NCBI GenBank assembly: GCA_965202835.1
Contig: CBDBCA010000006.1
Coordinates: forward strand, 806,035-870,034
Length of the DNA stretch: 64,000 nucleotides
DNA from: Alphaproteobacteria bacterium
GTDB lineage: Bacteria > Pseudomonadota > Alphaproteobacteria > MPNO01
Direction of reading: 5' to 3'
Below the pieces are notes generated by a model. That model worked only from the letters and a program-made list of their open reading frames with translations. It did not search any database and had not been told where the DNA came from. A program made the translations under genes and the position numbers. Below are positions 4,563 to 59,800 of the stretch, piece after piece. Position 1 is the stretch's first letter; the number at the start of each line of letters is the position of its first letter.

Positions 4563-9095
<4,533 letters not shown>

Positions 9096-9129
9096 GCCGC
9101 CCTTCGAGCCGCGCCCCTGGAGAGACAGC

Positions 9130-9984
9130 GTGCCCGGCACGGCGCGAAAGCTCGTTTGTCTGGGGTTCGGCTATTGCGCGCAGGCTCTCGCTCGGGCGGC
9201 TGCCGGCGAGTTCCGGGAGATTGTCGGAACCACGAGACGGGCGGAACGGGAACGCGATCTCGGCTCCGACGGATTCCCAGTCGTTCCCTACGGCGCTACC
9301 GACCTTCTCGACGGCGCGACCCACATACTGATCTCGGCCCCGCCCGAGGAGTCGGGCGACCCGGTGCTCGCCGCCCTGGGCGACGCCATCGCGAGACTCT
9401 CCGGCGTCGAGTGGATCGGTTACCTTTCGACCACGGGCGTCTACGGCGACCGGCAGGGCGACTTGGTGAGCGAGGAAGATGCGCCAAGTCCCGGCCAGGC
9501 GCGGTCCAGGCTGCGTCTCGCCGCCGAGCGTGACTGGCTCGCCTTCGGCGAAACGCAAGGTATGGCGGTTCATGTTTTCCGCCTTGCCGGGATATACGGT
9601 CCCGGCCGAAACGTGCTCGACCGGCTCGGCGCCGGCTCCGCGCGGCGGATCGTCAAACCCGGCCAGGTGTTCTCCCGGATCCATGTCGAAGACGTCGCGC
9701 AGGTGCTCCGGGCCTCGATCGCGCGACCGGACGCGGGACGGGTCTACAACGTCGCCGACGACGAACCCTCCTCCCAGGAAGAAGTGGTTGCCTTTGCCGC
9801 CTGCCTGCTCGGCATCGCGCCGCCTCCGGAGGAACCGTTCGAGACCGCGGAACTCTCCGAACTCGCGCGGAGCTTTTATGCCGAATGCCGACGGGTCCGG
9901 AACGACCGCATCAAGCGCGAGCTCGGCGTGGTGCTGCGCTATCCGACCTATCGCGAAGGACTAAGCAGCCTCGCCGCGCCGTGA
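9130..9984 (+). CDS. SDR-family NAD(P)-dependent oxidoreductase/epimerase-like protein
   Basis: 284 aa with a degenerate N-terminal Rossmann motif 'LGFGYCAQAL' and an atypical-SDR pattern. The specific function is unknown. Confidence 0.6.
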   Translation: MPGTARKLVCLGFGYCAQALARAAAGEFREIVGTTRRAERERDLGSDGFPVVPYGATDLLDGATHILISAPPEESGDPVLAALGDAIARLSGVEWIGYLSTTGVYGDRQGDLVSEEDAPSPGQARSRLRLAAERDWLAFGETQGMAVHVFRLAGIYGPGRNVLDRLGAGSARRIVKPGQVFSRIHVEDVAQVLRASIARPDAGRVYNVADDEPSSQEEVVAFAACLLGIAPPPEEPFETAELSELARSFYAECRRVRNDRIKRELGVVLRYPTYREGLSSLAAP

Positions 9985-26269: not shown

Positions 26270-26359
26270 GGAGGGGTGGCCGAGCGGCTGAAGGCGCACG
26301 CTTGGAAAGCGTGTATACCGGAAACGGTATCGTGGGTTCGAATCCCACTCCCTCCGCCA
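26270..26359 (+). tRNA. tRNA-Ser (anticodon GGA), class II, CCA encoded
   Basis: The sequence reads GGAGGGGTGGCCGAGCGGCTGAAGGCG...CTTGGAAAG...GGTTCGAATCCCACTCCCTCCGCCA, with a long variable arm. Confidence 0.9.
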
Positions 26360-40621: not shown

Positions 40622-40627
40622 GCGATC

Positions 40628-41131
40628 GTGGATGGGTGCATTCTTGACACTAGCGTTTTATCCATTTGCTTGGATTCTTCACACTCGCGGCACGACGACA
40701 TACAAACCGAATTTACAAAGATAGAGAAGAATGCAGTGTTATTTCTTTCCACGATTTCTTTGGGGGAGTTGGAATTCGGTGTGCGGCTTGCAAAGGTGTT
40801 TGGTGGGAGACCGCTGCCGGTGCTTGAGCAGATGTTGATCGATGCACGAAGGTATGGAATTCTGGATGTGACTAGCCATACCTCCGCATCTTATGGTGAA
40901 TTGAAATCCAATCTTGCGGAGACCTATCTCGCGGACGCAAGCCGTAGGGGCCGACGACGTTGGGTGGAAGATTGGATTGATAAGACGAGCGGGAAAAGGC
41001 TTCAGATAGATGAGAATGACTTATGGATATGTGCTCAGGCCAAGGAACGCGATTTGTTGGTTGTCACTGCAGATAAACGCATGCAGCGGATCGCTGATGC
41101 AGACACGGAAGTGCGTCTCCGTATAATATGA
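40628..41131 (+). CDS. PIN-domain nuclease (VapC-like) without a recognisable VapB partner
   Basis: 167 aa with a GTG start. The PIN acidic residues are in the contexts 'ILDTSVL', 'LGELEFG', 'ENDLWICAQA' and 'VVTADK'. It is in the same reading frame as the MTase, separated by TGA plus 2 codons. Confidence 0.75.
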   Translation: MDGCILDTSVLSICLDSSHSRHDDIQTEFTKIEKNAVLFLSTISLGELEFGVRLAKVFGGRPLPVLEQMLIDARRYGILDVTSHTSASYGELKSNLAETYLADASRRGRRRWVEDWIDKTSGKRLQIDENDLWICAQAKERDLLVVTADKRMQRIADADTEVRLRII

Positions 41132-41427
41132 CAATCGGCAGCGTCGCGTGGGATATTTCGACTCGGAGAGGACTACGGGTCGGTGCCAGCCGCTGGTCGT
41201 GTTGAAGCCGCCGCATAGCCTCTATATCGAGACCCCCTTTTGGCTTGGACAGCAATCATGACCCTCCTTACTCCGAAATGTAGTGCATACACCATGCGCC
41301 ACCATAGGCAACGCGCCACTGCTGCATTGAACTATTTCCGGAACGGAGTTTGAGTATCCGTCGTGCGCGGAGCGTGAAGAGACGTCCTCCAGCCGTTCCG
41401 AACGGGCGTCATCGTCCGGTGTGGGAA

Positions 41428-42078
41428 TCACTCCCACCACCAACCCATCATCCCTTCTTCCACATACGCGTGGACATCCAGCTTGCCGTCGCCGAAACGG
41501 ACGGTATTCACAATATCGTTCAATAGCTCCTTTTCATCGGACGCGTTTCTCGATCTCCACAGGGAGACGAACAATTCTGTCTCCCCGCCGTAGTGGTCGA
41601 CGAGCGTCGTGAAAATCGCGTTCGTTTCGCCTTCGACTAGCTCCATCGCCAGTTCGTACAGCCGCTCGTCGTCGACGTCCTCGTCTTCGTCAAGACTTTC
41701 CGCGACGGTTTCGAGTGTGCCCATCCGACGAGCGAGCTCCCACAGATCCTCGGTGTCCACATTCAAGGAATCGAGATACCGAGAGAGGGGAACGTGTTCG
41801 GAAAAATATCCCCCGAGTTCCGAGAAATTCCCGGCCGCCTGGTAAATGCCGAGATACATCGCCAACAGGCAAACAGCCCGTAGCCTGGGCACCGTCCGGT
41901 CGAACCCGACTTCCTCGGACTCGGCTGCGCCGGTCAGACCCGCCTTCTCCAACGCGCCCCAAGATTCCCTGTACCATCCAAGTTCGGGCGTGTCGACGAT
42001 GACGCAACCGTGTTCCCGGAAGAATCCCTCGACCTGAACCCACCGGAGCGATTCCCTTTCAGATGCCGAGGTCGTCAT
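41428..42078 (-). CDS. hypothetical, extremely acidic protein co-transcribed with hsdRMS
   Basis: 216 aa with about 45 Asp/Glu versus about 17 Lys/Arg by my count, including a 'SLDEDEDVDDE' run. Its start overlaps the 3' end of hsdS by 20 nt. I recognised no family. Confidence 0.6.
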   Translation of the reverse strand: MTTSASERESLRWVQVEGFFREHGCVIVDTPELGWYRESWGALEKAGLTGAAESEEVGFDRTVPRLRAVCLLAMYLGIYQAAGNFSELGGYFSEHVPLSRYLDSLNVDTEDLWELARRMGTLETVAESLDEDEDVDDERLYELAMELVEGETNAIFTTLVDHYGGETELFVSLWRSRNASDEKELLNDIVNTVRFGDGKLDVHAYVEEGMMGWWWE

Positions 42079-43300
42079 CGCTCCCTCTGTTGGGTTCGTC
42101 GTGCGCGATATCCAGCAACCGATTCATCAGAGAGGCGGTCAGGGCATTGGCACTCTCGGAGCCGGAATGTCCAACGTTACCCGCGGACCGAACGCTGTTG
42201 AGGATTTGCACGAATTTACTTTGCCGCTCCAACGGTGGAACAGGAAGCTTCAAGCTTTCCAAGCTACGAATGTTGACGTTGTAGTTTCCCGCAGTGGTCC
42301 GTGCCAGCCGTAAAATGGCCTGCCGCATCGGCGGTAGTTCAAGGCATGTCGAGACATATCCGGGGATTGCGCGCGCACTCGACGCAAGACGTAATCGAAT
42401 AAGGTACGAAGCGTATGCTGCTTTGCGGCCATCGGTGAATACTGCGCATCTGCCTACATAATCCGGATTGCCGTTTGTACGAACGAACAAAAGGTCTCCT
42501 TGTTCCAAGAGGAGTGTTTCTGTTTCTCTTTCAGTAAGAGAAGTAAATTTAATGTCATGCCAATTGATCGCGTTTCCCAATACGTTGGGAATACGCAGGA
42601 TCGGAATATCCCCATTGCGTGGCTCACTTAGGCATTTCCTTGAAGTGCCGTACCGAAATTCGTGGGCGAGTTGCGCAAGGCTCTCAATACCCCAACCCAT
42701 CGGATTCTCGACCGGATCGCCGAACATCCTGACGAACAGCGCGGGGACGAATTCCCGCAGCCGGTCCTGAGCCTGCGCGCGCAGCTGCTCGATTTTCGCC
42801 GCCCGGTTCAGAATGCCGACGATCCGCTGTTGCTCATCGAGCAATGGAAGGGGAACAGGGAGCTCCGCAACATCTTTGGGATACAAGTGTAGCCCGGTTA
42901 CCGCGCCCCTCAGCGCCGAGCGTCCCGCGTCGGAGTTCAACCACCAGTATATTAGCGCTGGCTCGATTCGGTCACGATTAGGACGCACAATAGTCCATTC
43001 GCCAACCGGTAAGGAACGTTCCACTTCCTTTTCTGCGAAGTACAGTTTGCTGCCGACATGAGAAGCACTATGTGCGGAATTTAGAATTAGAATGTCGTTT
43101 TCGTTTATCCACTTGGACGGGTATTTTAATGCAAAGTCGGTATCCACAAAATTGTCAAATTCACCAGAAAAACGTCGATCTGGTCTAACATCTTTAACCT
43201 TTAATACTGGATGTCCCGATGATCGCTTGTCCTTCTTCGAGGGTGTTTTCCCGTTGAAGACTTCCGCCACCTCACCAATGGGAACATTGGTGCCGCTCAT
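42059..43300 (-). CDS. hsdS: Type I restriction-modification system specificity subunit
   Basis: 413 aa with two target-recognition halves separated by the conserved 'LPLLDEQQRIVGILN...' and 'LPVPPLERQSKFVQIL' helices. It has an ATGA overlap with hsdM. Confidence 0.9.
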   Translation of the reverse strand: MSGTNVPIGEVAEVFNGKTPSKKDKRSSGHPVLKVKDVRPDRRFSGEFDNFVDTDFALKYPSKWINENDILILNSAHSASHVGSKLYFAEKEVERSLPVGEWTIVRPNRDRIEPALIYWWLNSDAGRSALRGAVTGLHLYPKDVAELPVPLPLLDEQQRIVGILNRAAKIEQLRAQAQDRLREFVPALFVRMFGDPVENPMGWGIESLAQLAHEFRYGTSRKCLSEPRNGDIPILRIPNVLGNAINWHDIKFTSLTERETETLLLEQGDLLFVRTNGNPDYVGRCAVFTDGRKAAYASYLIRLRLASSARAIPGYVSTCLELPPMRQAILRLARTTAGNYNVNIRSLESLKLPVPPLERQSKFVQILNSVRSAGNVGHSGSESANALTASLMNRLLDIAHDEPNRGSDDDLGI

Positions 43301-44928
43301 TCTGCCGCGGGCTCCCGCACCGCCTCCGCCAACTCGTCGATCTCCCCCAATATCTCCGTCTCTATGGCTCGCAGCTCGTCCAGTATCTCCAGCGGATCGC
43401 GATGCTCCACCCTCGCCCGGCTCTGCGGCCGGTGGCGGTTGGCGCTAAGGTTGAAGTCGGCTTCGCGGATGGCGTCGGCTTCGGCGAACCACCAGTTTTC
43501 GGTCCAGTCGGCATCTGGGTCGCGGTCCCGCCATGCCGTCCATCCCTCCTCCCGGTCGCGGAACGCCTCGATCAGGCCGGGCAGGTCGTCTTCGTCGATG
43601 GGTTGGTCGTGGTTGGCGTCCAACTTGAAGCCGTCGTTCTCGGCGTGGAGGAACATGACGCGTCCGGTCGTCCCGTCCTTGCGGAAGACGAGCACCGAGG
43701 TCTTGACCCCGGCATAGGGGTTGAACACGCCGCCGGGAAGGGACAGCACCGCCTCCACTGTGTTGTTCTCGACCAGCTTGCGGCGCAGCTCCCGGTGCGC
43801 GCCCGTCGAGCCAAACAGCACACCCTCCGGCACCACGACGCCGCAGCGCCCGCCGTCTCGCAGGTGGTTCAGCATGTATTGCAGGAACAGGAGCTCCGTC
43901 TGCGCGGTGCGCCCGACCTTTACCTCCTCGACGATCCGGTCCTTGTCGAGCCGGCCGGAAAATGGCGGGTTGGCGAGAATGACATCGAAGCCCTGCACCG
44001 GGAGCCCGAGTTCCGCCTTTGCCGCGCGGTCGAGCGAGCGGGTGAGCGCGTCGCGGCGCAGGATGCGCACCCGATCGAGACCACGCAGCGTCAGGTTCAT
44101 GGTGGCGAGGCGGACCATTTGAGGGTCCACGTCGGCACCGTAGAACGTCGCATCCTCCAATTGTTCGACGGCCTCCCTGCCCAGCATATCGCCCAGGCCG
44201 CGCCGGATCGTCTCGCCCTCCGCTTCCACCTCCTCGATGCCGGCGGGCGACGAGTTGGCGAGCCGGATATGATCCCACGCGGCCACAAGGAAGCCCGCCG
44301 TCCCCGCCGCCGGGTCGTAAATCGTCTCGCCAATCCTGGGATCGACCAGCCGGACCAGGGCGCGGATGACGTGGCGCGGCGTCCGGAACTGGCCGAGCTC
44401 CCCCGCCTGCCTGATCTGGCGGAGCACGTGCTCGAACAGGTCGCCCTTGGTGTCGGCGTCCACCCGCTCCAGCTCCAGGTCGTTCAACTGGCTCACGACC
44501 TGGGTGAGCACGTTGGGCTCGTCGATCACCAGCCGGGCGCCATCCATGAAGTCGGTGACGCCGCTGGCCGCGAGTTCGGCATGGAAGGGGAAAACCTCCT
44601 CCCGTACCCAGTTGACCAGCGGCGGCCCGTTCAGCGCCTGCGCCCAGGACGACCAGCGCAGGCGTTCGCGCGGCACCGTCTCGACGCCGGTGTCCGGCGC
44701 GTTGCGCGGATTGCGCAGCGCCCATTCGCCTTCGAAGGCGCTGACATGGGGTTCGGAGCCGGGCCGGCGGGCGGCGCGCACGCGGGCCGCATCCGCCGCC
44801 TCGTACATGTAGAAATAGATCAGGAAGCTGAGCTGTTCCGCGTTCTGGGCGGGGTTGGGATAGCCGCCGCCGTACAGGTAATCGCGGATGCGGTCGATGC
44901 CGCTTCGGAGCTCGGGCGTCATGGGCAT
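43297..44928 (-). CDS. hsdM: Type I restriction-modification system methyltransferase subunit
   Basis: It has an HsdM N-terminal domain, motif I 'DPAAGTAGFL' and motif IV 'NPPF' (ILANPPFSG). The start is set at the Met after the hsdR stop; the ORF track start at 44976 would overlap hsdR. Confidence 0.9.
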   Translation of the reverse strand: MPMTPELRSGIDRIRDYLYGGGYPNPAQNAEQLSFLIYFYMYEAADAARVRAARRPGSEPHVSAFEGEWALRNPRNAPDTGVETVPRERLRWSSWAQALNGPPLVNWVREEVFPFHAELAASGVTDFMDGARLVIDEPNVLTQVVSQLNDLELERVDADTKGDLFEHVLRQIRQAGELGQFRTPRHVIRALVRLVDPRIGETIYDPAAGTAGFLVAAWDHIRLANSSPAGIEEVEAEGETIRRGLGDMLGREAVEQLEDATFYGADVDPQMVRLATMNLTLRGLDRVRILRRDALTRSLDRAAKAELGLPVQGFDVILANPPFSGRLDKDRIVEEVKVGRTAQTELLFLQYMLNHLRDGGRCGVVVPEGVLFGSTGAHRELRRKLVENNTVEAVLSLPGGVFNPYAGVKTSVLVFRKDGTTGRVMFLHAENDGFKLDANHDQPIDEDDLPGLIEAFRDREEGWTAWRDRDPDADWTENWWFAEADAIREADFNLSANRHRPQSRARVEHRDPLEILDELRAIETEILGEIDELAEAVREPAAE

Positions 44929-44938
44929 GGGTGTGTTC

Positions 44939-47050
44939 TCAGGACTCTTCCTTGCTTTCCCCGAAGACCGCCGCATTGAAGCCGGCGATCAGCCGGGCCA
45001 GCGGTTCTTCGCCACCGAACACCCGCCGCGCCTGATCGTAGCCGCCCAGCGCGCTGAAAGGGTGCGCGTCGAAATCGTAGTCCCCGAAGGCGGTCATGGT
45101 CGTCGCGTCGGCTCGGGCCCGGCTTCCAATCAGTTTGGCCCAGCGCGCCTGCTCGGCATCGAAGTCGTGCGCCTTGTGCCAGGATTCGAACCGAATGCCG
45201 ATCTCCGCCGCGCGGGCCTCGTGCTCGGGCGTCCTCACGATCCTGCCGTCCTCGTCGAGGGTCAACCATTCCCGGCTCGCCGGGTCGATGCGATCCCCCA
45301 CGTCGAGCGTCAGCAGCGCCCGCGGGTCGCCGGTGCCGGTCGGCTGGCGCCTGGTCCCGATCCCACCGGGAATGTCGCCATCGTCGTCGCCGTGGAAATC
45401 CGTCACGCCCACGAAATCGAACATCGTGAAATCGGTCTTTTTGATGTGCGGCGCCTTGCGTGTCCCGCGACCGCGCATCTGCCGGTAGAGGATCGCACTT
45501 TCGGTGTAGCGTGCCATCACGAGGCCGACCACTTCCGGGCAGTCGAAGCCGGTATCGAGCATGTTCACGCTGACCAGGATCTTCGGGAAGTCCTCGTCCT
45601 TGAAGCGCTTGATGATGGCGGTGGCGTCCGGCGCCGGACCGCCGCCCACGTCGCTCACCACGAAATCGGCGTAGCGCACCGTCGGATGGGGTTTCAGGTC
45701 GGCGAAATGCTCGTCGAGCATGGTCGCCAGGGTCTCCGCATGGCGCCGCGTCACCGCGAAGACGATGGTCTTGCCCCAGCTCGGGAACCGCCGCACCCCG
45801 TCCCTGCCGGTGAAGCCGTTTTCCAGGACTTCCCGGAACTCGCGCACGATGGCGCGGTTGCGCTCGGGGATGGTGAACTTGCGTTCCAGCGCGCGCGGGT
45901 CGACGGAGATGGTGTCCGAGGCCGCGAACAGCTCTTCGAACTCGGCCCTCGTCGCCTCGTCCATCGCGGTCCAGTCGAGCTCGTCGCGGCGAACCGGGAA
46001 CCCGCCCTCGGCGGCGGTCTTGACCGTCAATGCGCGGTAGATGCCGTAGGGCACCAGATAGCCCTCGGCGATCGCCTCGCGAAGCCCGTAGCGGAAGGTC
46101 GGCCTGTCGACCTCGAAGAAGCGGAGCGTGTCGCGGACGAACAGCCCGTCCTCGGGGTCGGCCACCTCGTCCGCCACGGCGGCGGTGCAGGGCGTCGCGG
46201 TCAGGCCGAGTTGGATGGAATCGAAATGCCGCAACACGCCGCTCCACTTGCCGTAGATCGAGCGGTGGCACTCGTCGGTGATCACCAGGTCGAAATAGCC
46301 GGGCGAGAGGTCGCGGTATTCCGCGATCATCGTCTGGAGCGTGGCGATGGTGATCCGCTTGGCGCGGTCGAAGCCGCGGCCGGGGCGCAGCACGTGGCAG
46401 GGGTAGTCGCGGAGATGGTCGGTGAAGGCGTCCTCGGCCTGTCCCGCCAGCGCGATCCGGTCGACGAGGAACAGCACGCGGGTGACGGCCCCGGCCTCGA
46501 ACAGCCGCTTGACTAAGGCCGCCGCGGTGCGGGTCTTGCCGGTGCCGGTCGCCATCTCCACCAGCAGCTTGCGGCGGCCGCGCGAGACTTCGGCGGACAG
46601 CGTCTCGATGCACGCGATCTGGTAGTCGCGATCGACGATCCCGCGGTCGATTTCGACGGTCGAGAGGTCGCGGCGGAGCGAGCGCGCGGCGATCCGCCGC
46701 TCGAGATCGTCCTGTGCATAGAACCCCGCGATCCGGCGCGTGTGCGCGTCCGTCTCGCGGTCGAGGAACCGGACCTCCTCGCCGTTCGACAGGAAGACGA
46801 ACGGCACGTCGAGTTGTTCCGCGTAGTGGCGGCCTTGGTCCTGAGCGAGGATCGGGTCGACGCTGGCACGCTTTGCTTCGAGCGCCGCCATCGGCCGTCC
46901 CGCGCGGTCGCAGAGCACGTAGTCGGCCAGCGTGCCGTCGGGGAGCGCGTATTCGAACAGGACGCTTGCGCCGTCCGTGATGTCCCAGCCGGCATCCTTG
47001 AGGAGCGCGTCGATCTTCGCGCGCGCGAAGGCCTCGGTGGTGCCGGTCAT
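44939..47050 (-). CDS. hsdR: Type I restriction enzyme endonuclease/translocase subunit
   Basis: It has an N-terminal PD-(D/E)xK motif ('ADYVLCD...ALEAKR'), SF2 helicase motif I 'MATGTGKT' and motif II 'DECH'. The start is placed at Met30 of the tracked ORF (MTGTTEAFARAKIDALLKDAGW). Confidence 0.9.
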   Translation of the reverse strand: MTGTTEAFARAKIDALLKDAGWDITDGASVLFEYALPDGTLADYVLCDRAGRPMAALEAKRASVDPILAQDQGRHYAEQLDVPFVFLSNGEEVRFLDRETDAHTRRIAGFYAQDDLERRIAARSLRRDLSTVEIDRGIVDRDYQIACIETLSAEVSRGRRKLLVEMATGTGKTRTAAALVKRLFEAGAVTRVLFLVDRIALAGQAEDAFTDHLRDYPCHVLRPGRGFDRAKRITIATLQTMIAEYRDLSPGYFDLVITDECHRSIYGKWSGVLRHFDSIQLGLTATPCTAAVADEVADPEDGLFVRDTLRFFEVDRPTFRYGLREAIAEGYLVPYGIYRALTVKTAAEGGFPVRRDELDWTAMDEATRAEFEELFAASDTISVDPRALERKFTIPERNRAIVREFREVLENGFTGRDGVRRFPSWGKTIVFAVTRRHAETLATMLDEHFADLKPHPTVRYADFVVSDVGGGPAPDATAIIKRFKDEDFPKILVSVNMLDTGFDCPEVVGLVMARYTESAILYRQMRGRGTRKAPHIKKTDFTMFDFVGVTDFHGDDDGDIPGGIGTRRQPTGTGDPRALLTLDVGDRIDPASREWLTLDEDGRIVRTPEHEARAAEIGIRFESWHKAHDFDAEQARWAKLIGSRARADATTMTAFGDYDFDAHPFSALGGYDQARRVFGGEEPLARLIAGFNAAVFGESKEES

Positions 47051-47093
47051 CGCTTCACGTGCGCCGACCGCGACGGCAATTCGGGCGCGGCTG

Positions 47094-47438
47094 TCACCGC
47101 TTGCGCCCCGATCTGGCGATGCGCTGGACCTCGGCACGTTGGAGGCGGAACTGCCTAGCGATCCCAGCCGGTTTCACACCCGCCTCCAGCGCCGCCCGGG
47201 CGACCCGTTCGAGACCGAGAGAGATCGCGCTCGCTCGTTTCCCGGCGGATGGGCCGGAACCGCTCCTCGATACCGCGTCTCTACGGTTTCCGCGACCATC
47301 GCCCGTTTCATTTACCGTCAAGCCGCGCCGCCGCACCTCCGCCGTTGCCGTGCGCAGCAATTCCTCCAGTTGAGAGTCGTTGAGATGGCGGAGCGACCGC
47401 GCAAGGTTACCCGGCAGGGCGAGTTTGGGCGGATCCAT
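47094..47438 (-). CDS. small hypothetical protein with a C-terminal resolvase/Hin-like HTH
   Basis: 114 aa. 'GVKPAGIARQFRLQRAEVQRIAR' resembles HTH_7/HTH_23. It lies immediately upstream of hsdR on the same strand. Confidence 0.45.
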   Translation of the reverse strand: MDPPKLALPGNLARSLRHLNDSQLEELLRTATAEVRRRGLTVNETGDGRGNRRDAVSRSGSGPSAGKRASAISLGLERVARAALEAGVKPAGIARQFRLQRAEVQRIARSGRKR

Positions 47439-48089: not shown

Positions 48090-48242
48090 CCATGCGTTCC
48101 CCTGATCGTTGCCATGATGCCGAGATGCGCGGCATTCCGTAGAGCGATAACGACCCGCGACGCCCGCCGCAACCGTGATGAACGACGGTGCCGAAATTCT
48201 CGTAGGAAGGCGCGACGGTCACCGCGAGAGAGGTGATTGCAG

Positions 48243-48377
48243 ATTTCGACGGTACTCAACTATTTCGACAGCGGGCATATCACATTGCCCAAGTTTCAGC
48301 CCGGCTATGTCTGGAACCGCGTTCAAGTACGGGGGTTTTTCGATTTCTTCTACCGCCATCATCCAGTGGGTGGCCTG
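48243..48377 (+). pseudogene. N-terminal remnant of a DUF262 (GmrSD/ParB-like nuclease) gene
   Basis: 'ISTVLNYFDSGHITLPKFQPGYVWNRVQVRGFFDFFYRHHPVGGL' matches the DUF262 'IP.FQR.YVW' N-terminal motif. Homology stops after about 47 codons. Confidence 0.55.
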
Positions 48378-48464
48378 CGCCCGCAGCGGATGATCCGCCG
48401 GTACCCGGGAATTCAGATCCGCGTAGCTGAACAACCCATCGTCCCGCTCGTCCACACCCCGCAT
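48375..48464 (-). mobile_element. IS5/IS1182-type transposase N-terminal fragment (DUF772-like)
   Basis: The minus-strand translation 'DDGLFSYADLNSRVPADHPLRA' matches the conserved InsH-type N-terminal motif. Only about 30 codons remain, abutting the DUF262 remnant. Confidence 0.5.
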
Positions 48465-48493
48465 CGCAACCGCCGCAACCAATTATCACGGAA

Positions 48494-49660
48494 TCAAGAA
48501 ATCGCGAGATCGAGAGCCGTGGCACGCTGCTTTCTTTCTTCGAAAGCTCGTATCGGCTCGTCGAGAGGGGGAAGGATTTCATGAAATCCACTGTGCAAAT
48601 TCCGAAACATCCGAGCAAGAATTCCAAGTAGATCGTGGACGTCCTTCTTATTCTCATGAATGTGCTGCTTCAGCCGTACCGTCGTGTCTCTACTATCGTC
48701 CAGGTACTTTTGATCCACTTCGCCTGCATTATGTTCGTAAACATGACGACGATGAAACATCAAAATAGTCTGCTTGCGCTCATTCTCCGAAATTTCAGAA
48801 AAGATGTCAATATCAAACCAAGTAAGCAGAATTTCTGAGACCTCAGAAAGATCGTGAAAGCCCTGCTTCAATAGCCGTTGTTTGCGACGTCGCGACATTG
48901 GAACGAGATTGGCCAATTGCATCCCTACCTGCCGGACAAAAGACTCGAACGCCGCAACAGCGTCCCTCAAGCAATCTTCCGGAAGACTATCTGCGTTCAG
49001 TTGCGCTCGAATTTCTGGGACGACACTATTCTCAAATTCCATTAGATCATTTCGCGTGCAACACATGGAGCAATATCCAAATCTACCCAAGATATCGTTG
49101 AACTCATTGCAAGCGGAACAATTGAATTTCTTCTGTTGACTTTCTTCAGATACGTAGAACGAGGGTCTTTCTTCGTCCTTAAACGCAGCATCGGCGACCG
49201 CATCCATATCAATTTCTACTCTGCCGTCTTCCTTTGAGTCGAGGGCTTCGAACAGAGTGTTACAGTAGTGCTTCACGTAGCGAAGCTGCGCTTCGGAGAG
49301 AAACTGATAAGGGGCAAACGACGCTGCACAGTACGGACAGAAATGGGGCCAAGGGCCGCTGCGCCAGTACCCTCCACAATGTGGGCATTTGTGACCAAAA
49401 TAACCTTCGCTATCGGACGCAATTAGCACAGGAACACATTCAGAGAATGGCGGCGGATTCCACGGCTGTCCGATTCCACGAAGTTCAATGCATTCCACTA
49501 CCACTCCCTGGGGAAGGGCGTAGACGCCAATCAAGGAATGAGGAACGGATCGACTAGACTTGAACGTTACCTGATAAGCTTGTCTTCCATCATCATCCGT
49601 CTTGAGATCGAACGTGATCTTACCACCAGAGTGGCTCACTTCTACGAAGTCTCTGCTCAT
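48494..49660 (-). CDS. hypothetical protein with two zinc ribbons and a C-terminal HEPN-like Rx4H motif
   Basis: 388 aa from AT-rich DNA. It has Cys pairs C92xxC95...C108xxC111 and C181xxC184...C197xxC200, plus 'FHRRHVYEHNAGEVD' (R305-x4-H310). It is monocistronic. Confidence 0.6.
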   Translation of the reverse strand: MSRDFVEVSHSGGKITFDLKTDDDGRQAYQVTFKSSRSVPHSLIGVYALPQGVVVECIELRGIGQPWNPPPFSECVPVLIASDSEGYFGHKCPHCGGYWRSGPWPHFCPYCAASFAPYQFLSEAQLRYVKHYCNTLFEALDSKEDGRVEIDMDAVADAAFKDEERPSFYVSEESQQKKFNCSACNEFNDILGRFGYCSMCCTRNDLMEFENSVVPEIRAQLNADSLPEDCLRDAVAAFESFVRQVGMQLANLVPMSRRRKQRLLKQGFHDLSEVSEILLTWFDIDIFSEISENERKQTILMFHRRHVYEHNAGEVDQKYLDDSRDTTVRLKQHIHENKKDVHDLLGILARMFRNLHSGFHEILPPLDEPIRAFEERKQRATALDLAIS

Positions 49661-49873
49661 GTCTCGCCGTTACTCCCTAGCTACATGGTTATTCTATGCT
49701 AGCCCACGAGAATGTTCCAGAAATCGCACAGATTTTACCGGTGGCGACGGCTGGATTCCACACGAATATCAGGCTTATGAGGGATTGAAGGCCTGGGGCA
49801 TGAGGTCTCCGACACGATCATTTGGATGTCTGGCGGCGATGACTTCGAGCGTGCCCTAAGGGGCTGTACAGCT

Positions 49874-50197
49874 TCACCGGAAGAGCCTCACGAGCGCGTA
49901 GCGCTGGGTACTGTGCTTCCGGGGAACCGCTTGCTTGAGCTTTTCCAGGTTCGTCAGCTTCCGGCGAACGGCGGGCAGGTAAGCGGCTTCGGGCACGTCG
50001 ATCAGGCCGAAGTCCAGCTTGGCATCGTGCAGGGAGAGTAGGAAGGTCGCGACGTGGCCGGTCAGCCCGCAGGCCGCCGCCACTCCTTGAAACGGCATGT
50101 CGGGGGTTACGAAGAAGGTGCGTCCCCACCGAACCGTCCCATATCGAAATCGTCGCCGAGGTGGATAGCCGCGCCCGTCGCTCGACGTAACGACCAT
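49874..50197 (-). CDS. hypothetical protein (weak call)
   Basis: About 107 aa from the internal Met of the tracked ORF. The frame is GC3-rich and I recognised no family. Confidence 0.3.
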   Translation of the reverse strand: MVVTSSDGRGYPPRRRFRYGTVRWGRTFFVTPDMPFQGVAAACGLTGHVATFLLSLHDAKLDFGLIDVPEAAYLPAVRRKLTNLEKLKQAVPRKHSTQRYALVRLFR

Positions 50198-50330
50198 CCG
50201 CTGCCGCCCCGCGCGATCCCGCGTATCTTCCGGAAGAGAGTTGAGAGAAGCCTTGAGCCGGTCGGCGTTGGGGTGTCCCGGGGAAGGACATCTCCTCCGC
50301 CATCCACCACCGGCACGAGGAGACGGAAAC

Positions 50331-50660
50331 ATGGCGACAGCGCTGGCGATGCCCGGCAACACTGCGGACACCTTCCTGGTACATTTCTTCGGGACCGGCC
50401 TGGCCGACGATCGCTATGTAGTCGAGAAATTCCGGGCGCGCGCGGACGGCGACATCGTACCCATCCCCGCCGGGCCGACCGGAACGAACGGCCGCCGCGG
50501 GAAGGCGAAGCACACGATTGTCTCGCGCGAGCAGGCGGAGGCGATGCGGCCCGACCGCACGGAGATCATCATCTGCACGGGGCTCAGCACCCGCGGCGGT
50601 CGCCAGGCGTGGGGGAGCGTAGCCGCCGGTCTCCTGTGCGACCGCAGGCAGCGGGGCTGA
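50331..50660 (+). CDS. hypothetical protein (weak call), upstream of the zinc-ribbon repeat gene
   Basis: About 109 aa (MATALAMPGNTADTFLVHFFG...). The frame is GC3-rich and I recognised no family. Confidence 0.3.
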   Translation: MATALAMPGNTADTFLVHFFGTGLADDRYVVEKFRARADGDIVPIPAGPTGTNGRRGKAKHTIVSREQAEAMRPDRTEIIICTGLSTRGGRQAWGSVAAGLLCDRRQRG

Positions 50661-50749
50661 GACGCGGTTCTCCAGGATGCCCGGCCGGCCCCCATCCGGG
50701 TCGGCCGGGCGTCCCTCTCCCCTTTTCCCACGGCAATGAGGATGCTCCC

Positions 50750-51901
50750 ATGTGCGAGCAGCAGGACATCGAGGCCCGCCGCGCGCGCGACCTGCAGCGC
50801 CGGCGTCGCCGGGCGGCCGAGCGCCGCGCCCGGGGGCTCTGCGTAAAATGCGGCAAGCGTTCGCCCGAGCCGGAGCGCAGCCAGTGCGGGCCGTGCGCCG
50901 GGAAGCGGCGGAAGGCCGATCTGGAACGCCACCATCGGCGGACCGCCGAACGCACCGCCCTGGGTTTGTGCCCCAGATGCGGCAAGCGCGAACCGGCGCC
51001 CGAGCGGGTACTGTGCGAGCCCTGCGGCGAGAAGCGGACCCGCGCGAGCCGGACCCGCGATGCCCGGCTGCGCGCCGAGGGAGTTCCGCGCCGCGACCCT
51101 GTCCGCGCGAAAGCCTACGAACGGAAGAGGTCCCGCTGCGAGCGTGCCGCGCGCGAGGCCGCCGGCATCTGCACCGCGTGCGGCGCGACGCCCGCCGCCC
51201 CGGGCCGGGTTCGCTGCGAGCCATGCCTCGAGAAGCGCCGGGCGGCGGACCGTGAGAAATACGCCGCCGGCAAGGCTGCCGGGCTGCCCTATGGGGGCTC
51301 GAACATCGAGGCGAAACGGCGCGGCGCCCGCGCCAGGAGCAAGACGCGCCAGAAGGAGCGGATCGAGGCCGGGCTGTGTATCCGCTGCGGCAAGCACCCG
51401 CCGGTCGAGGACGGGACGACCTGCCAGACTTGCCGTGACAAGAGGCAGGCGGCGGAGCGCCGGCAGTACCAGGATCGGCGTACCGCCCGGCTTTGCACGA
51501 GATGCGGGGGGCCGGCGATCAACGGCCTGTCGCGCTGTACCCCATGCGCCATCGTCGAGGAGGCCAGCCACGATCCGGAGCGCAAGAACGCGCGCTCGCG
51601 CAAGCTGTATTCCGAACGGAGGGCCCGGGGGTTGTGTACATCCTGCGGGGCGCCGTCACAGGGAGCCAGCCGATGTGCCCCGTGCGCGGAGCGCAGCTAT
51701 CACGGCTCGGCGCATTTCAGGGGCATCCCGGTCTGGGACCCGACCTGGACGGTGATCGAGCTGGACACGGGGCGCGCGCACGGCCCGTTCGACAGCGAGG
51801 CCGACGTCGCCCTCTGCCTGGTCTTCGAGAAGCTCGACCGCGACCGGGTCGAGATCGTCACCGACGCGAGCCCGATGGCCGCGTTGACGTCCTGGTCCTA
51901 G
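50750..51901 (+). CDS. hypothetical protein made of six tandem CxxC-(8-11)-CxxC zinc-ribbon repeats with basic linkers plus a ~60-aa C-terminal domain
   Basis: 383 aa from the ATG at 50750 (MCEQQDIEARR...). The repeats are GLCVKCG..CGPC, GLCPRCG..CEPC, GICTACG..CEPC, GLCIRCG..CQTC, RLCTRCG..CTPC and GLCTSCG..CAPC. Confidence 0.65.
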   Translation: MCEQQDIEARRARDLQRRRRRAAERRARGLCVKCGKRSPEPERSQCGPCAGKRRKADLERHHRRTAERTALGLCPRCGKREPAPERVLCEPCGEKRTRASRTRDARLRAEGVPRRDPVRAKAYERKRSRCERAAREAAGICTACGATPAAPGRVRCEPCLEKRRAADREKYAAGKAAGLPYGGSNIEAKRRGARARSKTRQKERIEAGLCIRCGKHPPVEDGTTCQTCRDKRQAAERRQYQDRRTARLCTRCGGPAINGLSRCTPCAIVEEASHDPERKNARSRKLYSERRARGLCTSCGAPSQGASRCAPCAERSYHGSAHFRGIPVWDPTWTVIELDTGRAHGPFDSEADVALCLVFEKLDRDRVEIVTDASPMAALTSWS

Positions 51902-52450: not shown

Positions 52451-54829
52451 TCAACCGACGATTGCCTGTCTGGCTCGGCCGACACTTTCGGACACCTTAT
52501 CCGCGCCCGTTCTCGCTCTATCAATGTCAGATAATGAACCGAGCTCTTGTTGTATCAACGCCAAGTGATAAACTAAACTCGTGCGTTCGGCTGTTGACAG
52601 TGCTATAAGTCTCGCGCGTACAAACGGCTCGATCTCCATTAACACTTGAATTGCATGGTCTCTCCTACTTTCTTCGCCAATCATTTGTCTAATTTCATCG
52701 ATTTTTCCAACAATCTGATCAAATCTTTGCACCGTTTCTCCGCTAACTTCCCGCTGTTCTATTAGCAACATGAGTCTCAATGCAAAGGTATCTATTTGAA
52801 AGGTAAGGAACCCGGGACTATCCTTCGCCCTTGCGTAGGCTGTTCGAATTAAGTCCTCGGCCATATATAGATCGTCTGCTGCCGTCATTAGTATGGAGTA
52901 CTGCAACCAAAAGAGTGGCTCTTTATTCACATCAATATCCCGCCTCAATTTTTCGTACAAACCAATCAGCAATTCAATTCTGCGAGGCTCTTTCACCAAT
53001 GCTCGATTTAAGATAGAGAACCTCATAAGACTGCTTAGTATTCCTTGATAGCGTTTTTGGTGCTTTCTCTTTACCGCCTCGACTATTATTGGGTACACCC
53101 CATCCAATATGTCAGCTGCTGCTATATGAGTTTGAATGATATATTCTGAAAAAATAGGAGACCTTACATGGACCTGATCGTCATCCAGTCGAAAAATTTC
53201 AGTAGCGATGGCTCGAAATCTCGCCATAGCGGCATACGCGTCACAATTGGTTACGCTGCGTAAGAAACCAGGATCTACCTCATGTCCGGCCCATCTCAAC
53301 AAATGGCTTGCTACAATTATCTTCCGAATTTCAGAATCATCCATCAAGGGTTTGAGTTCGTCTGATATTTTTTGTTTGATCTCTGAATGATCATATAGCG
53401 TAGTTACTACTTCACGAAAATCTTTACAGTTTCGAATGCCTTCTTCCAAATTCTCCGTCCGTATGCCCGATTGATCCAACAGCACACAAAATTCTTCCAA
53501 ATCGCTTCGACTTACTTTATTAAGGTTAAGACGCTGTATCGGAGCAGGAAAGCGATTTTGTATTTCATGCAATCTAACGTCCTGTATGCCAGTGCGCACA
53601 GCAACAATCACCTTTGCCATAGGAAGGCGTTCTTTCATCTCGTCGATAATATCTCTTGCGGAATCATAATCATCGAACATTAGTACGGCTTCTTTAATAT
53701 CACGCAACACTGCCACATCTTCTGGCAGTAGCGTTGTATTTGTTCTTGCTAAAAAACATTTGTACTCTTTTTGGGCAAGTCTGTGAGCGAGAATATAAAG
53801 GAAAATAGATTTTCCATTTCCCAAAAGTGAATGCAGAATTAACGTATGTGTGTTATCAAGCAACGCGGCAGCCTCCTCGGCCTGAGCTCGACGGGCCACG
53901 ATATACTCACTATTTGGTAGAGTCGATAGGCAGCGTCGAAAATTGAATGTTCCGTAAGTTACGAGATTCAAAATTTCCAATGCTGTGGGAGACGAAAGGG
54001 ATTTTTTGTCCATGAGTGGATCCAAATATCGAAATGATCGTAAGGTGTGAATGTTGCCTGTAGACGTTGGCTCCGAAAGGTTCCTGCAATGGTCAGAGAA
54101 ACCTTCTATTCCTACAGGCAGCACTTCACCATAAGGGGCGATTCGGCGAGAGAAAATAGCATCAACTGTGCCACTGGTAATAAAATATGTCTTTTCTGTT
54201 GTCTCTCGATGCTGCAATAAAATTGATGAAATATGGTAGTCCCTCAGGCTATATCCCACAAAGATACACATTTGACAGAATCGGAGATCGTGAATGAATT
54301 CGTCGTACCACAAGGATTTTTCAAAATGTTGCCGTACATACGAACTTTCCGTCAGCACTAGCTGTTCCAATATATTATCTTGATTAGCAAGACGAATCAT
54401 TCCATGTAAATGGACGATCGTCCCAGGGGCCATTCTGTTCGGCTTCGGGTCAGTGTAACTGAAACTGTTGATGTTTTGTTTCGAATTGTGATAATGTAAT
54501 TCCAACCCATCGTCGTAGTTGGTGGTGTAGATGCGACGCCAAGGTTTCTGTAGTACGTTGACTTGATGTTCGTGTAGTTCCCGTACCGTGAAAAGTTCGT
54601 ACAGCATTTGGTACAAATTCAATTTCTCACGAGAATTCACTTCTTCTGCCAGAGTTTGAAAGTCGTAGAGATTTTCGTCCACGCTCAATGCGTGAGCAAG
54701 TTCGCGTTTCAATTCTTCTCCCGTTGGGATTGCATTGCCGCGAATGTTGATAGCGTTACGTGAAAAGCCGGAACCAAGGAACAAAATAGACTCAGCTGTA
54801 CGAAGTTCCTTTAGTTGGTCAATGCTCAT
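52451..54829 (-). CDS. SIR2-domain plus P-loop (STAND-like) NTPase with a helical C-terminal region; candidate single-gene antiphage protein (SIR2-STAND / Avs5-like architecture)
   Basis: 792 aa from very AT-rich DNA. The SIR2_2-type motifs are 'LFLGSGFS', 'YTTNYDDGLE' and 'IVHLHGM'. Walker A is 'SLLGNGKS' (aa 334-341) and Walker B is 'VLMFDDYD' (aa 382-389). The C-terminal half is about 400 aa and helical. Confidence 0.7.
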   Translation of the reverse strand: MSIDQLKELRTAESILFLGSGFSRNAINIRGNAIPTGEELKRELAHALSVDENLYDFQTLAEEVNSREKLNLYQMLYELFTVRELHEHQVNVLQKPWRRIYTTNYDDGLELHYHNSKQNINSFSYTDPKPNRMAPGTIVHLHGMIRLANQDNILEQLVLTESSYVRQHFEKSLWYDEFIHDLRFCQMCIFVGYSLRDYHISSILLQHRETTEKTYFITSGTVDAIFSRRIAPYGEVLPVGIEGFSDHCRNLSEPTSTGNIHTLRSFRYLDPLMDKKSLSSPTALEILNLVTYGTFNFRRCLSTLPNSEYIVARRAQAEEAAALLDNTHTLILHSLLGNGKSIFLYILAHRLAQKEYKCFLARTNTTLLPEDVAVLRDIKEAVLMFDDYDSARDIIDEMKERLPMAKVIVAVRTGIQDVRLHEIQNRFPAPIQRLNLNKVSRSDLEEFCVLLDQSGIRTENLEEGIRNCKDFREVVTTLYDHSEIKQKISDELKPLMDDSEIRKIIVASHLLRWAGHEVDPGFLRSVTNCDAYAAMARFRAIATEIFRLDDDQVHVRSPIFSEYIIQTHIAAADILDGVYPIIVEAVKRKHQKRYQGILSSLMRFSILNRALVKEPRRIELLIGLYEKLRRDIDVNKEPLFWLQYSILMTAADDLYMAEDLIRTAYARAKDSPGFLTFQIDTFALRLMLLIEQREVSGETVQRFDQIVGKIDEIRQMIGEESRRDHAIQVLMEIEPFVRARLIALSTAERTSLVYHLALIQQELGSLSDIDRARTGADKVSESVGRARQAIVG

Positions 54830-56891: not shown

Positions 56892-59800
56892 TTGGTCGCG
56901 AGCCTGAGCGAGGTGGGCTCGACGGCGACCACGGTGGCCTATTTCGCGCGCGAGGGCTATTACGCGAAGGACGACCGGAGGCACTACCTGGCGAGCTTCT
57001 GGCACGGCGGCGCGGCAAGGGCGCTGGGCCTGCCGAAGCATGTTTCCTCCAGGGTGTTCGAGAAGATCCTCACGGGCTTCGTGCCGGGGACGGAGATCCG
57101 GCTGGGCCGCGCGCGGGACGGCGAGCACCAGCACCGTCCGGGGCTCGACCTCACCCTGTCGGCGCCGAAGTCGGTGTCGCTGGAGGCGCTGCTCCACGGC
57201 GACCGGCGAGTGGTGACCGCGCACGACCGGGCGGTGCGGGCGACGCTGGACTGGGTCGAGGCGGAGCTGTTGCAGACCCGCGGCTACGACCCGGCGACGG
57301 GTCGGCGCCCGCGGGTGGCGGCGGACGGTCTGGTGGCGGCGACGTTCCGCCACCTGACCAGCCGGGACCAGGACCCGCAGCTCCACACCCACTGCATCCT
57401 CGCCAACATGACGCGCAACCGGGCCGGCGAATGGCGCAGCATGGAGCCGACCGAGATCCGCCGGAGCGTGAAGCTGATCGGGGCCTATTACCGCCAGGAG
57501 CTGGCGAGCCGGCTGATCGGGATGGGGTTCCGGATCGAGGCCACGATGATCGGCGGCGTGCCGGGCTTCGAGATCGCGGGCTATCCGCGGGCGCTGCTGG
57601 AGGAGTTCTCGTCGCGCCGGCGCGAGATCCTGTCGTGGCTGGAGAAGCACGGCCTTCCGTTCTCCTCGGCGCTGACGCAGCAGGCGGCGCTGATCACCCG
57701 CGAGCGCAAGGTCGAGCGGGACCTCGACGAGCTGAAGGCGGAGTGGACGGCGCGGGCCGGGGCGCTCGGAGTTGCGCGGGACAGGAGCGTGGCCAGGCCA
57801 GGAAGGGGGCGGAGGAAGAAGGCCTCGAAGGAGACCGCCCGGAAGGCGGGCCGGCCCTATGTCCGGACGGCGGAACAACTCACCCCCGAGCCGCCCGGGC
57901 TGAGCGCGCGCGAGATCGTCTGGCGGGCGGTGGAGCACCTGGCGGAGCGCGCCTCGGTGTTCCGGGAGAGCGACATCAGGGCGATGGCGCTGAGCCACGC
58001 GCCGGGGCGGCACGGGCTGGCGGAGATCGACGCGAGCATCGCCGGGCTGACGGCGGACAGTCATCTCGTGGAAGCCAACCTTCGGGGCGGGCGCTCGTTC
58101 GTGACCGGCGACGCGCTGCGTTCGGAGCGCGAGATCCTGTCCCGCATGCGGGAGGGGCAAGGGCAGGCCCGGGCGCTGGCGCCGGAGGCCCGCGTCTCCG
58201 AGCGTCTGGAGGAGACGACGCTCACCGAGGGCCAGAAGGAGGCGGTGCGGACGATGCTGCTGTCCGGCGACCGGATCGTGGCGGTCCAGGGCGCGGCGGG
58301 GACCGGCAAGACAACGATGCTGCGCGAGGCGCTGGGTCTGATCGGCGACCGCCCGGCGATCCTGCTCGCCCCCTCGGCCGCGGCCGCGCGGGTGCTGGCC
58401 ACCGAGACCGGCGCCCGCGCGCGCACCCTGCAATGGTTCCTGACCCGCTACGGCGACATCGGCAGCGCCGAGAAGATGGACGCCGCCCGCCGCGAGCACC
58501 AGGGCTCGGTGCTGGTGCTAGACGAATCCTCGATGGTGTCGACGGCGCAGATGGAGCTGTTGATGCGGATTGCCGAGAGGCTCCGCATCGCGCGGCTGGT
58601 GCTGGTGGGGGACCGGGGCCAGCTGCGCGCGGTGACCGCGGGCGAGCCGTTCCGGGCTCTCCAGGACGCCGGGATCGAGACGGCGGAGATGGACGAGATC
58701 ATGCGCCAGGAGGATCCCGCCCTGAAGCAGGCCGTCGAGCGGCTCCAGGACGGCCGGCCGGCCGAGGCGCTGGGCGGGCTCGCCGACGTGTGCGAGGTGC
58801 CGCACGAGGCGCTTGCGGCGACGGCGGCGCGGCTCTGGCTGGAGCTCGATCCGGAGAAGCGCGCCGGAACGGCGATCCTGGCGCCCACCCACTTCATCCG
58901 GGCCGAAATCCACCGCATCGTGCGCGACGGGCTCGCGGATGAGGGCGTGCTGCACGGGCGCGAGATCGAGATCGACCGGTTCGTCAACCGGCATCTCACG
59001 GCGGCGCAGCGGGCGGACGTGCGCAACCACGAGCCGGGCGACTTCGTCATCTTCCACTCGCGCGTGCCGCCTCTCAGGGTCCAGGAGGGGGATGCCTGCC
59101 GGATCGAACGCACGGAAGGCGAGTTCGTGTTCCTCGATCACCCCACCGGGCGGACGATCCGCATCCGGCCGGGCGACAGCTGGGTGCGCTACCGCTTCGC
59201 GGTCCATGAGACGGCGCGCATCCGGCTCCGGGCGGGCGACCGGATCCGCTGGACGGCGAACGACAAGCGGTACGGGCTGGTCAACGGCGGCGAGGCGGTG
59301 GTGGAGAAGATCGGCACGCGCCGGGTGCGGTTCGCGCTGGCCGAGGGACGGACGCTGACGCTATCCCGCGACGACCCCCGGCTGCGCCATCTCGACCATG
59401 CCTGGAGCTCGACGGTGCACGCCGCCCAGGGGATGACGCGGGACGCGGCGATCGGGGTGCTCGATACCGGGCACGGCCGTCTGTCCGGTCAGGCGGCGCT
59501 CTACGTGGAGGCGAGCCGGGCGCGGGAGCGGTTCGTGCTGGTCACCGACAACCGCGACACCCTGGCGGAGGCGCTGGAGGAGAACGACGGCGCCGGCATG
59601 ACGGCGCGCGAGGCGGTCGGTGAGGGGGTCGAACCGCCCCCCGCCAGCCCCGGACACCGATCCGGGGGGACGGTTGCCGGCATGCTGCGCGAGCTGCGCG
59701 ACGACTGGCGCGCGCTCACCGCCCGGGCGGAGGCGGAGAATGCCGAGCTCAACCGCATGGAGGGCTACGCGCGGATCGTGACCGGGGCGGCGGCGGCGGA

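Follow-up and report, generated by a model that had tools for sequence, protein, structure and literature searches.

A large mobile family of double zinc-ribbon proteins with a probable, highly divergent HEPN domain and a candidate role in anti-phage defence

We analysed a gene at positions 48494-49660 (minus strand) of a 64,000-nucleotide (nt) stretch of DNA from an Alphaproteobacteria bacterium (GenBank assembly GCA_965202835.1, contig CBDBCA010000006.1, positions 806,035 to 870,034); this whole stretch is called the window below. The gene belongs to a large, mobile and so far unnamed family, and we lean towards the view that its product is a self-contained sensor-effector, which most likely serves as a single-protein module of anti-phage suicide or defence. 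The protein contains two Cys4 zinc ribbons, predicted to bind zinc, followed by an all-alpha C-terminal domain which, judging from its conserved residues and from its model, is probably a highly divergent HEPN domain. It could not be detected as belonging to any HEPN family that already has a name.

Family size and residue conservation

The open reading frame (ORF) is complete according to both the ORF listing and the translation, with an ATG start, 388 codons and a stop. The protein has the modal length of its family and keeps every family-invariant residue. An earlier reading, made from the letters of the DNA alone (hereafter the sequence-only reading), had described the gene as an AT-rich, monocistronic orphan encoding a double zinc-ribbon protein with a HEPN-like Rx4H motif in a helical C-terminal region. 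The translation bears out the residues on which this description was built, namely the CxxC pairs C92/C95, C108/C111, C181/C184 and C197/C200, which make up two CxxC...CxxC patterns in an intact frame, and one single Rx4H, R305-H310, inside FHRRHVYEHNAGEVD. The word orphan does not hold. With E<=1e-3 as the limit, a word-indexed search yielded over 1,017 homologues, and an exhaustive profile search covering 1.84 billion cluster representatives gave 1,180 clusters (50% identity) at the same threshold and 251 at E<=1e-30. The best 120 homologues are 59-92% identical over their full length and nearly all measure 380-400 residues; every named one among them is a "hypothetical protein" and is devoid of any Pfam domain.

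The distribution of the family is wide. A scan of one genome per species yielded 64 family loci, and the hosts comprise Acidobacteriota, Nitrospirota, NC10, Alpha-, Beta-, Gamma- and "Delta"-proteobacteria, Omnitrophota, Gemmatimonadota, Chlamydiae, Clostridia, Spirochaetota and Tectimicrobiota, with Bradyrhizobium, Variovorax, Cupriavidus, Methylobacterium and Bosea among the cultured ones. Homologues in Acidobacteriota, Nitrospirota, NC10 and Pseudomonadota reach about 60% identity, those in Omnitrophota, Chlamydiae, Clostridia and Spirochaetota 38-48%. The statement of the sequence-only reading that the protein could not be placed in a named family was upheld on this larger basis, since Pfam, NCBIfam, PADLOC, PHROGs and the PDB sequences (searched with phmmer and with a profile) returned only noise or zinc-ribbon matches.

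Residue conservation was assessed at two depths. The columns were on average 71% identical among 47 close homologues, and only 15 columns were invariant in 67 representatives whose identities range from 25 to 59%: D83, C92, C95, R100, C108, Y110, C111, Q176, C181, C184, G192, C197, C200, R305 and H310. H306, G313, D316, Y319, D325, R259, Q125, Q175, D189 and N204 were near-invariant. Conservation peaks at both ribbons and in the region of helix 3 and its motif, and is roughly equal in the N-terminal beta-rich domain and the helical core. The two motifs do not have the same value when a single sequence is considered. At least four CxxC occurred in 0.01% of shuffles of the 388-residue protein, so rarely that the zinc-ribbon pattern can be taken as real in the lone sequence. 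In contrast, at least one Rx4H occurred in 66% of the shuffles, and the motif therefore carries no weight in one sequence; its invariance among homologues is the only thing that counts. The lone-sequence Rx4H was consequently rejected as evidence for HEPN. The sequence-only reading had itself stated that it would fall if the Rx4H residues varied among homologues. This is not what we found, R305 and H310 being invariant in all 67 homologues down to 25% identity.

The AlphaFold2 model of the full protein, computed with a 47-sequence alignment, has a mean predicted local distance difference test (pLDDT) score of 86 and a predicted template-modelling (pTM) score of 0.79. All coordinates of its parts given below lie on the minus strand. 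In this model a beta-rich N-terminal domain, whose strands fall within residues 14-101, runs into ribbon 1, and is followed by a helix (123-140), a small beta/alpha unit and ribbon 2, after which the chain is all-alpha from residue 205 to the C-terminus; the helical C-terminal half read from the sequence alone is thus also what AlphaFold2 predicts. The N-terminal domain proper (residues 1-87; 49399-49660) has predicted strands at 14-21, 27-34, 43-48, 54-58 and 76-81, contains the invariant D83 and gave no family match. Ribbon 1 spans residues 89-115 (49315-49396), with C92, C95, C108 and C111 and the invariant R100 and Y110, and ribbon 2 spans residues 176-203 (49051-49135), with C181, C184, C197 and C200 and the invariant Q176 and G192. 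In addition to the eight invariant cysteines, strands flank each knuckle in the model, as expected of Cys4 zinc ribbons, and weak Pfam zinc-ribbon matches recur in the family (HypA in 48 of the 67 members, DZR in 25). The N-terminal consensus reached 27.1 bits against Zn_Ribbon_TF (cut-off 29), and the sole PADLOC match, PDC-M14A (E=0.01), concerned the zinc-ribbon part only.

HEPN hallmarks of the C-terminal domain

The all-alpha domain (residues 204-388; 48497-49050) was modelled in isolation with a pLDDT of 93.4. In full-length numbering its helices are 205-222, 227-252, 257-265, 271-282, 292-311, 317-323, 338-362 and 367-387. According to the survey of Anantharaman et al. (2013, PMC3710099), HEPN domains carry an Rx4-6H motif whose R is directly followed by a polar residue (N, D or H), and helix 2 contributes a conserved acidic residue, typically within Ex3[KR]. 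Their fold is an up-down core of four helices, in which an insert separates helices 2 and 3 and the motif lies at the end of helix 3. The family protein shows counterparts of the features that can be read from sequence and predicted helices. Besides the invariant R305 and H310, position 306 is polar throughout (H in 64 and N in 3 of the 67 members), and position 239 (codon 48944-48946), inside the predicted helix 227-252, is acidic in 66 of them, with E and D in 33 each. The residue four positions further, 243, is R or K in 36/67. The putative catalytic codons, R305-H306-V-Y-E-H310 (48731-48748), fall in the last two turns of helix 292-311, before the loop leading to helix 4. We therefore propose a HEPN layout with H1 at 205-222, H2 at 227-252, a helical-hairpin insert at 257-282, H3 at 292-311 and the long helix 338-362 as H4. 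It is because these hallmarks cohere and because the predicted topology fits that we hold the HEPN assignment to be probable.

Structural comparison points weakly in the same direction. When the isolated domain was compared with the PDB by Foldseek, the only matches combining a probability of at least 0.15 with a target template-modelling (TM) score of 0.38-0.42 were MtlR (6kcr_C), HepT SO_3166 (5yep_C), a second HepT (6m6u_H) and the HEPN domain of sacsin (3o10_C), all of the HEPN superfamily; the other helical bundles in the list had TM values of 0.1-0.3. Nevertheless, several results weigh against the HEPN assignment and, with it, against the defence function that we favour. All the Foldseek matches of the domain had E>1, the HEPN ones lying at 1.7-4.3 with root-mean-square deviations of 8-9 Å, and the agreement of helix order and motif position with the HEPN description is one of secondary structure, three-dimensional packing being outside the comparison. 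The full model gave nothing significant against the PDB and BFVD (best PDB E 0.9), the HEPN toxin 7ae8 appearing at rank 44 of the PDB matches. Pfam returned no HEPN match for the protein, the consensus sequences, the 67 members or 39 C-terminal domains, with the exception of HEPN_Swt1 (PF18731) in one of the 39 (E=0.0027), amid noise. A profile search of the PDB sequences gave no match, and hhalign of the domain profile against a Swt1-HEPN profile of 49 sequences, built from a genuine Swt1-family HEPN protein (28.6 bits, cut-off 27.5) that neighbours the family gene at locus L074, gave a probability of about 1% with the motifs unaligned. Significant similarity to an established HEPN family was therefore found neither by Foldseek, Pfam and NCBIfam nor by the PDB profile search and hhalign. 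Of the HEPN reading made from the sequence alone, the architecture stands, that is, ribbons followed by a helical domain with a conserved R305/H310 and three further hallmarks, whereas the HEPN fold is putative. The Foldseek test it had proposed gave an answer of the same kind, with HEPN proteins as the sole matches near a TM of 0.4 and none of them significant.

The C-terminal domain might, alternatively, be an all-alpha enzyme or binding domain of another kind, in which R305, H306, H310, G313, D316, Y319 and D325 would cluster in a different active or ligand site, for example one for phosphotransfer or nucleotide processing, and in which the likeness to Rx4H would be convergent or coincidental. 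The uniformly non-significant profile and structure searches and the ease with which shuffling produces an Rx4H speak for this, and so does a conserved, family-specific extension after the motif, GxVDxxYLxxxGDxSVRL, which is foreign to the HEPN definition. It would require, however, that four independent HEPN hallmarks coincide by accident in the correct helices, and that HEPN proteins provide the only matches at TM ~0.4 while no other fold or family scores better. Given these coincidences, we consider a non-HEPN domain unlikely and keep a divergent HEPN domain as the working assignment.

Mobility, proposed mechanism and related systems

The gene travels by itself. Its closest relatives by DNA are those of the loci L073 (90% identity) and L004, L074 and L069 (77-80%), and in all four the similarity to the window is confined to the ORF and about 80-240 nt upstream, ending about 80 nt from the ATG for L004, L069 and L074 and about 240 nt from it for L073. 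The alignment of these five contexts delimits a stretch of about 85 conserved nt, a leader or promoter region, which accompanies the gene (49661-49745, minus strand). Its pattern, for example CGGTAAA…TGTxGAxCAxTxTxG…CCATG…, has no match to the sigma-70 consensus; it could be a promoter or a regulatory leader. The composition of the gene is foreign as well. Its guanine-plus-cytosine (GC) content is 0.48 for a window at 0.65, in agreement with the AT-richness noted from the sequence, and in 100-nt steps it appears as a low-GC island at about 48.2-49.9 kb between flanks of 0.65-0.78. In the same way, the GC content of the gene was more than 5 points under that of its flanks at 29 of 53 loci, and over it at one. 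When the ORFs lying up to 5 kb from the gene were clustered over 61 loci, no neighbour family recurred except an rve-type transposase (7 loci), and no small ORF was conserved within 900 nt, so that no conserved candidate antitoxin, large or small, was found. Across 38 loci, no Pfam family occurred more than twice among the four ORFs closest to the gene, two per side. Since sharing is restricted to the ORF and its leader, since no neighbour is conserved and since the GC content lies below that of the flanks, the gene moves alone, as a cassette that includes its own leader. The monocistronic status claimed from the sequence is accordingly plausible, in that homologous loci have nothing in common beyond the ORF and about 85 nt in front of it; a clear promoter or terminator, flanking repeats and an adjacent tRNA were looked for at the locus and not found.

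The company kept by the gene is of a mobile and defence type. Matches to defence or mobility families among the nearest ORFs of the 38 loci included PD-T4-6, PD-Lambda-4_A, IetA, mad6, AAA_21, ResIII, SLOG, DUF772 and DDE transposases. Pfam-annotated contexts were obtained for eight homologues. One has an M78 peptidase and DUF4411 directly upstream, and others have HigB/HTH, rve, HD and SNase; rve, IS91, AlpA and an integrase; DUF4238, SIR2_2+DUF87, Nmad2/3, AAA_13 and DDE; four IS1595 copies with AbiEii, IstB and an integrase; or AbiEi/AbiEii, ParB, DDE_3 and a Swt1-HEPN protein. The abortive-infection context suggested by the sequence-only reading is plausible from these neighbourhoods, but the neighbours are mixed. 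Indeed, the nearest ORFs are heterogeneous and include ordinary metabolic and housekeeping genes, and one of the eight contexts has nothing notable and no defence gene. Other observations pull away from a dedicated defence function. No homologue was present in 50,697 phage records, and the plasmid homologues are six only, partial or weak. The N-terminal "sensor" varies as little as the effector does, an unusual trait if it were a receptor for phage proteins, which evolve fast. Concerning expression, no RNA runs were identified, and the runs containing the sequence are low-depth metagenomes, uninformative on this point.

We propose the following mechanism for the defence module. The divergent HEPN domain would be an endoribonuclease that needs no metal: H310 would serve as the catalytic base, R305 and H306 would hold the phosphate in position, and E239 of helix 2 would assist. 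By analogy with other HEPN enzymes, a composite active site might form only when two HEPN-like domains pair. The N-terminal 200 residues, with the beta-rich domain, the two Cys4 ribbons and D83, R100, Y110 and Q176, would recognise the trigger or the RNA substrate and would keep the nuclease off until an infection cue alters the oligomeric state; the role of sensor is one that we give to the zinc ribbons purely by inference. RNA cleavage would then lead to growth arrest and so to abortive infection or dormancy. The high conservation of the N-terminal half and the presence of invariant polar residues near the ribbons suggest a conserved ligand, possibly a nucleic acid. We also entertain, more tentatively, a wider proposition, according to which the roughly 1,200 clusters at 50% identity would constitute a widespread single-protein immune family, whose conserved beta/double-ribbon sensor would switch on a HEPN ribonuclease (RNase) defining a new clade. 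As part of that proposition, the conservation of the sensor would mean that the trigger is unlike the fast-evolving phage proteins sensed by systems of the kind described next.

The closest known analogue is RAZR (PD-T7-4), the ring-activated zinc-finger RNase of E. coli, which combines a zinc ribbon and a divergent HEPN domain in a single protein and is a proven abortive-infection RNase; it assembles around phage ring proteins, which its ribbon domain binds, and cleaves RNA (Zhang et al., Nature 2026, PMC13017515). The one-protein design is alike. The details are different: in RAZR the modelled or mutated residues lie within the first ~185, with one Cys4 ribbon (ZFD), a linker at 66-79, and R146 and H154 separated by 7 residues (PMC13017515), whereas the family protein has 388 residues, a beta-rich domain, two ribbons, a 60-residue helical linker and an Rx4H spacing of 4. 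Moreover, neither the protein nor the family members match DUF4145 (PF13643), the PADLOC models of the PD-T7 series gave no match, and RAZR is absent from the PDB sequence and Foldseek results for the family protein. Membership in RAZR/PD-T7-4 was rejected on these grounds of missing DUF4145/PD-T7-4 matches and differing architecture, and the protein is best described as a new family whose concept has a characterised precedent in RAZR.

Other HEPN groups resemble the family in part. In the Swt1-like/Abi2 clade, as in the family, the R of the Rx4H is followed by H, helix 2 has an acidic residue, the motif ends helix 3, and restriction-modification (RM) and Abi genes are found in association; the Swt1-family neighbour at L074, for instance, carries RHRVAH. 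The clade is recorded as including fusions to zinc ribbons, Npun_R5629 among them (PMC3710099), and the 2013 HEPN survey may already have touched the family through its "Zinc Ribbon (Npun_R5629)" entry of the Swt1-like group. The family differs by its near absence of detectable similarity to Swt1 domains, as seen above in the single HEPN_Swt1 match and the hhalign result. ApeA and other single-protein HEPN systems have the same general plan, a non-HEPN N-terminus with a C-terminal HEPN effector encoded in defence islands, but, apart from the ribbon-only match to PDC-M14A, neither ApeA nor another defence hidden Markov model was matched in PADLOC or Pfam at E<=1. The HepT toxins of HepT/MntA pairs (5yep, 6m6u, 7ae8) are among the best of the weak structural matches (target TM ~0.4) and likewise carry a motif of the Rx4H type in core helix 3. 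HepT, however, has about 130 residues and is always paired with an MNT antitoxin gene, whereas the family protein adds a 200-residue zinc-ribbon N-terminus. A HEPN-MNT toxin-antitoxin system was rejected, since the 61 loci had no conserved neighbour of this kind and no MNT gene appeared in the Pfam-annotated contexts.

The same absence of a partner bears on the possibility that the protein is a HEPN-type toxin serving the mobile elements that carry it, by addiction, exclusion of competitors or stress dormancy, instead of being dedicated to phage defence. Insertion sequence (IS) elements, integrases, relaxase-bearing elements and toxin-antitoxin genes are frequent nearby, and the sporadic distribution and foreign GC content would fit such a selfish role. 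No conserved antitoxin-like gene was found with the family, though, and a toxin without an inhibitor must inhibit itself, which is how RAZR and other abortive-infection sensors made of one protein are built. We regard a toxin of this sort as rather improbable. A non-catalytic regulator, with ribbons binding DNA or RNA and a helical domain binding RNA or a ligand in the manner of inactive HEPN domains of the MtlR type, would suit the common nucleic-acid binding of zinc ribbons, the unusual conservation of the whole protein and the fact that MtlR, a HEPN family in the 2013 survey (PMC3710099), has the best E-value among the HEPN structural matches, but it is very improbable in our opinion because R and H are invariant with flanking polar and acidic residues in 66-67 of 67 members, whereas inactive HEPN domains typically lose Rx4-6H (PMC3710099), and because no conserved target operon adjoins the gene.

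If the anti-phage function that we favour is correct, about a thousand "hypothetical proteins" of environmental and soil bacteria (in Bradyrhizobium, Variovorax, Cupriavidus, Methylobacterium, Nitrospirota, NC10 and Acidobacteriota) would gain a function, defence catalogues would gain a missing model and the HEPN superfamily a new clade. The family, currently missed by annotation with Pfam, NCBIfam, PADLOC and PHROGs, would then represent a second zinc-ribbon–HEPN design beside RAZR, with a bearing on how a lone nuclease is silenced and on what is sensed. Its high conservation should ease structure determination and the search for the trigger by phage-escape genetics.

Surroundings in the window and divergent family members

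Within the window, the gene lies in the cargo/defence region of a conjugative element, and the mobile-element scars that the sequence-only reading had placed on both sides of it are present. Directly 3' is a remnant of an IS5-family transposase (48219-48482, minus strand), limited to the N-terminal ~33 residues, which was recognised by tblastn against plasmids and has no Pfam match at E<=0.01. On the 5' side are the 3' end of an AbiEii-type gene (49896-50067, minus strand) and, further out, an integrase fragment. The AbiEii-type remnant is 85% identical in DNA and 75% in protein to the AbiEii-annotated gene of L073, and has no Pfam match here. At L073 an IstB segment (an IS21-type ATPase) and another ORF stand between the AbiEii gene and the family gene, so that the two loci differ by an insertion or a deletion.

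Beyond the IS5 remnant on the 3' side, an unassigned 209-residue ORF separates it from a complete type I RM system composed of HsdR (44939-47137), HsdM (43297-44976) and HsdS (42059-43300), which is followed by a PIN protein of 167 residues (40628-41131) and an MmeI-like N6 methyltransferase of 831 residues (38126-40621). This whole block, 38126-47137, is of lower GC content. On the 5' side, the integrase fragment lies beyond a GC-rich ORF of 615 residues (50054-51901, plus strand), which consists of about six tandem CxxC…CxxC units of the form GLCxxCGxxxxxxxxxxCxxCxxKRR with direct DNA repeats 129 nt apart, and which matches neither Pfam nor PHROGs. At 50342-50675, inside this ORF, the word depth in metagenomes was 200-1100x, against 4-8x in the adjoining DNA, which indicates that sequence related to this segment is far commoner than the present contig. 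Further out is a second AT-rich foreign gene (52451-54829, minus strand; GC 42-45%), encoding a 792-residue protein with SIR2_2 and STAND NTPase (+TPR-like) parts and with weak PADLOC matches to the SIR2 domains of ThsA, Dsr1 and LmuA; it is probably a separate defence gene. The presence of a 1,733-residue TrwC relaxase/helicase (56892-62093, plus strand) indicates that the island sits on a conjugative element, either an integrative and conjugative element (ICE) or a plasmid, and a tRNA-Ser at 26270-26359 could be its integration site.

Some genomes have two family copies, an example being the loci L007 and L040, which come from the same metagenome-assembled genome. At L044, tandem paralogues (8883-9989 and 9986-11161) have overlapping stop and start codons, an arrangement that might reflect a heterodimeric use of HEPN-like domains. 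The longer "variants" P0008, P0025 and P0030 were rejected as new domain fusions, and look like mis-called starts or read-through. P0172 (370 residues) has the N-terminal beta-rich domain and both zinc ribbons of the family; its last ~110 residues are different, contain no Rx4H and match nothing in Pfam. The effector may have been swapped in this single case. P0123, a metagenome protein of 428 residues, is normal to about residue 298 and then continues with the repeat "…FNPRPPRKVGAT…" at a spacing of ~24-40 residues, a tail that resembles the translation of a CRISPR-type repeat array which adjoins or interrupts the gene. Finally, two uncharacterised phage proteins of BFVD, A0A8S5NVI2 (311 residues) and A0A8S5LJP3 (215 residues), were matched by the full model with Foldseek probabilities of 0.98-1.00 at low TM values (0.25-0.41), and phrog_32384 (215 positions, unknown function) gave recurrent weak matches to the region of ribbon 1; shorter, phage-borne relatives of the family may thus exist.

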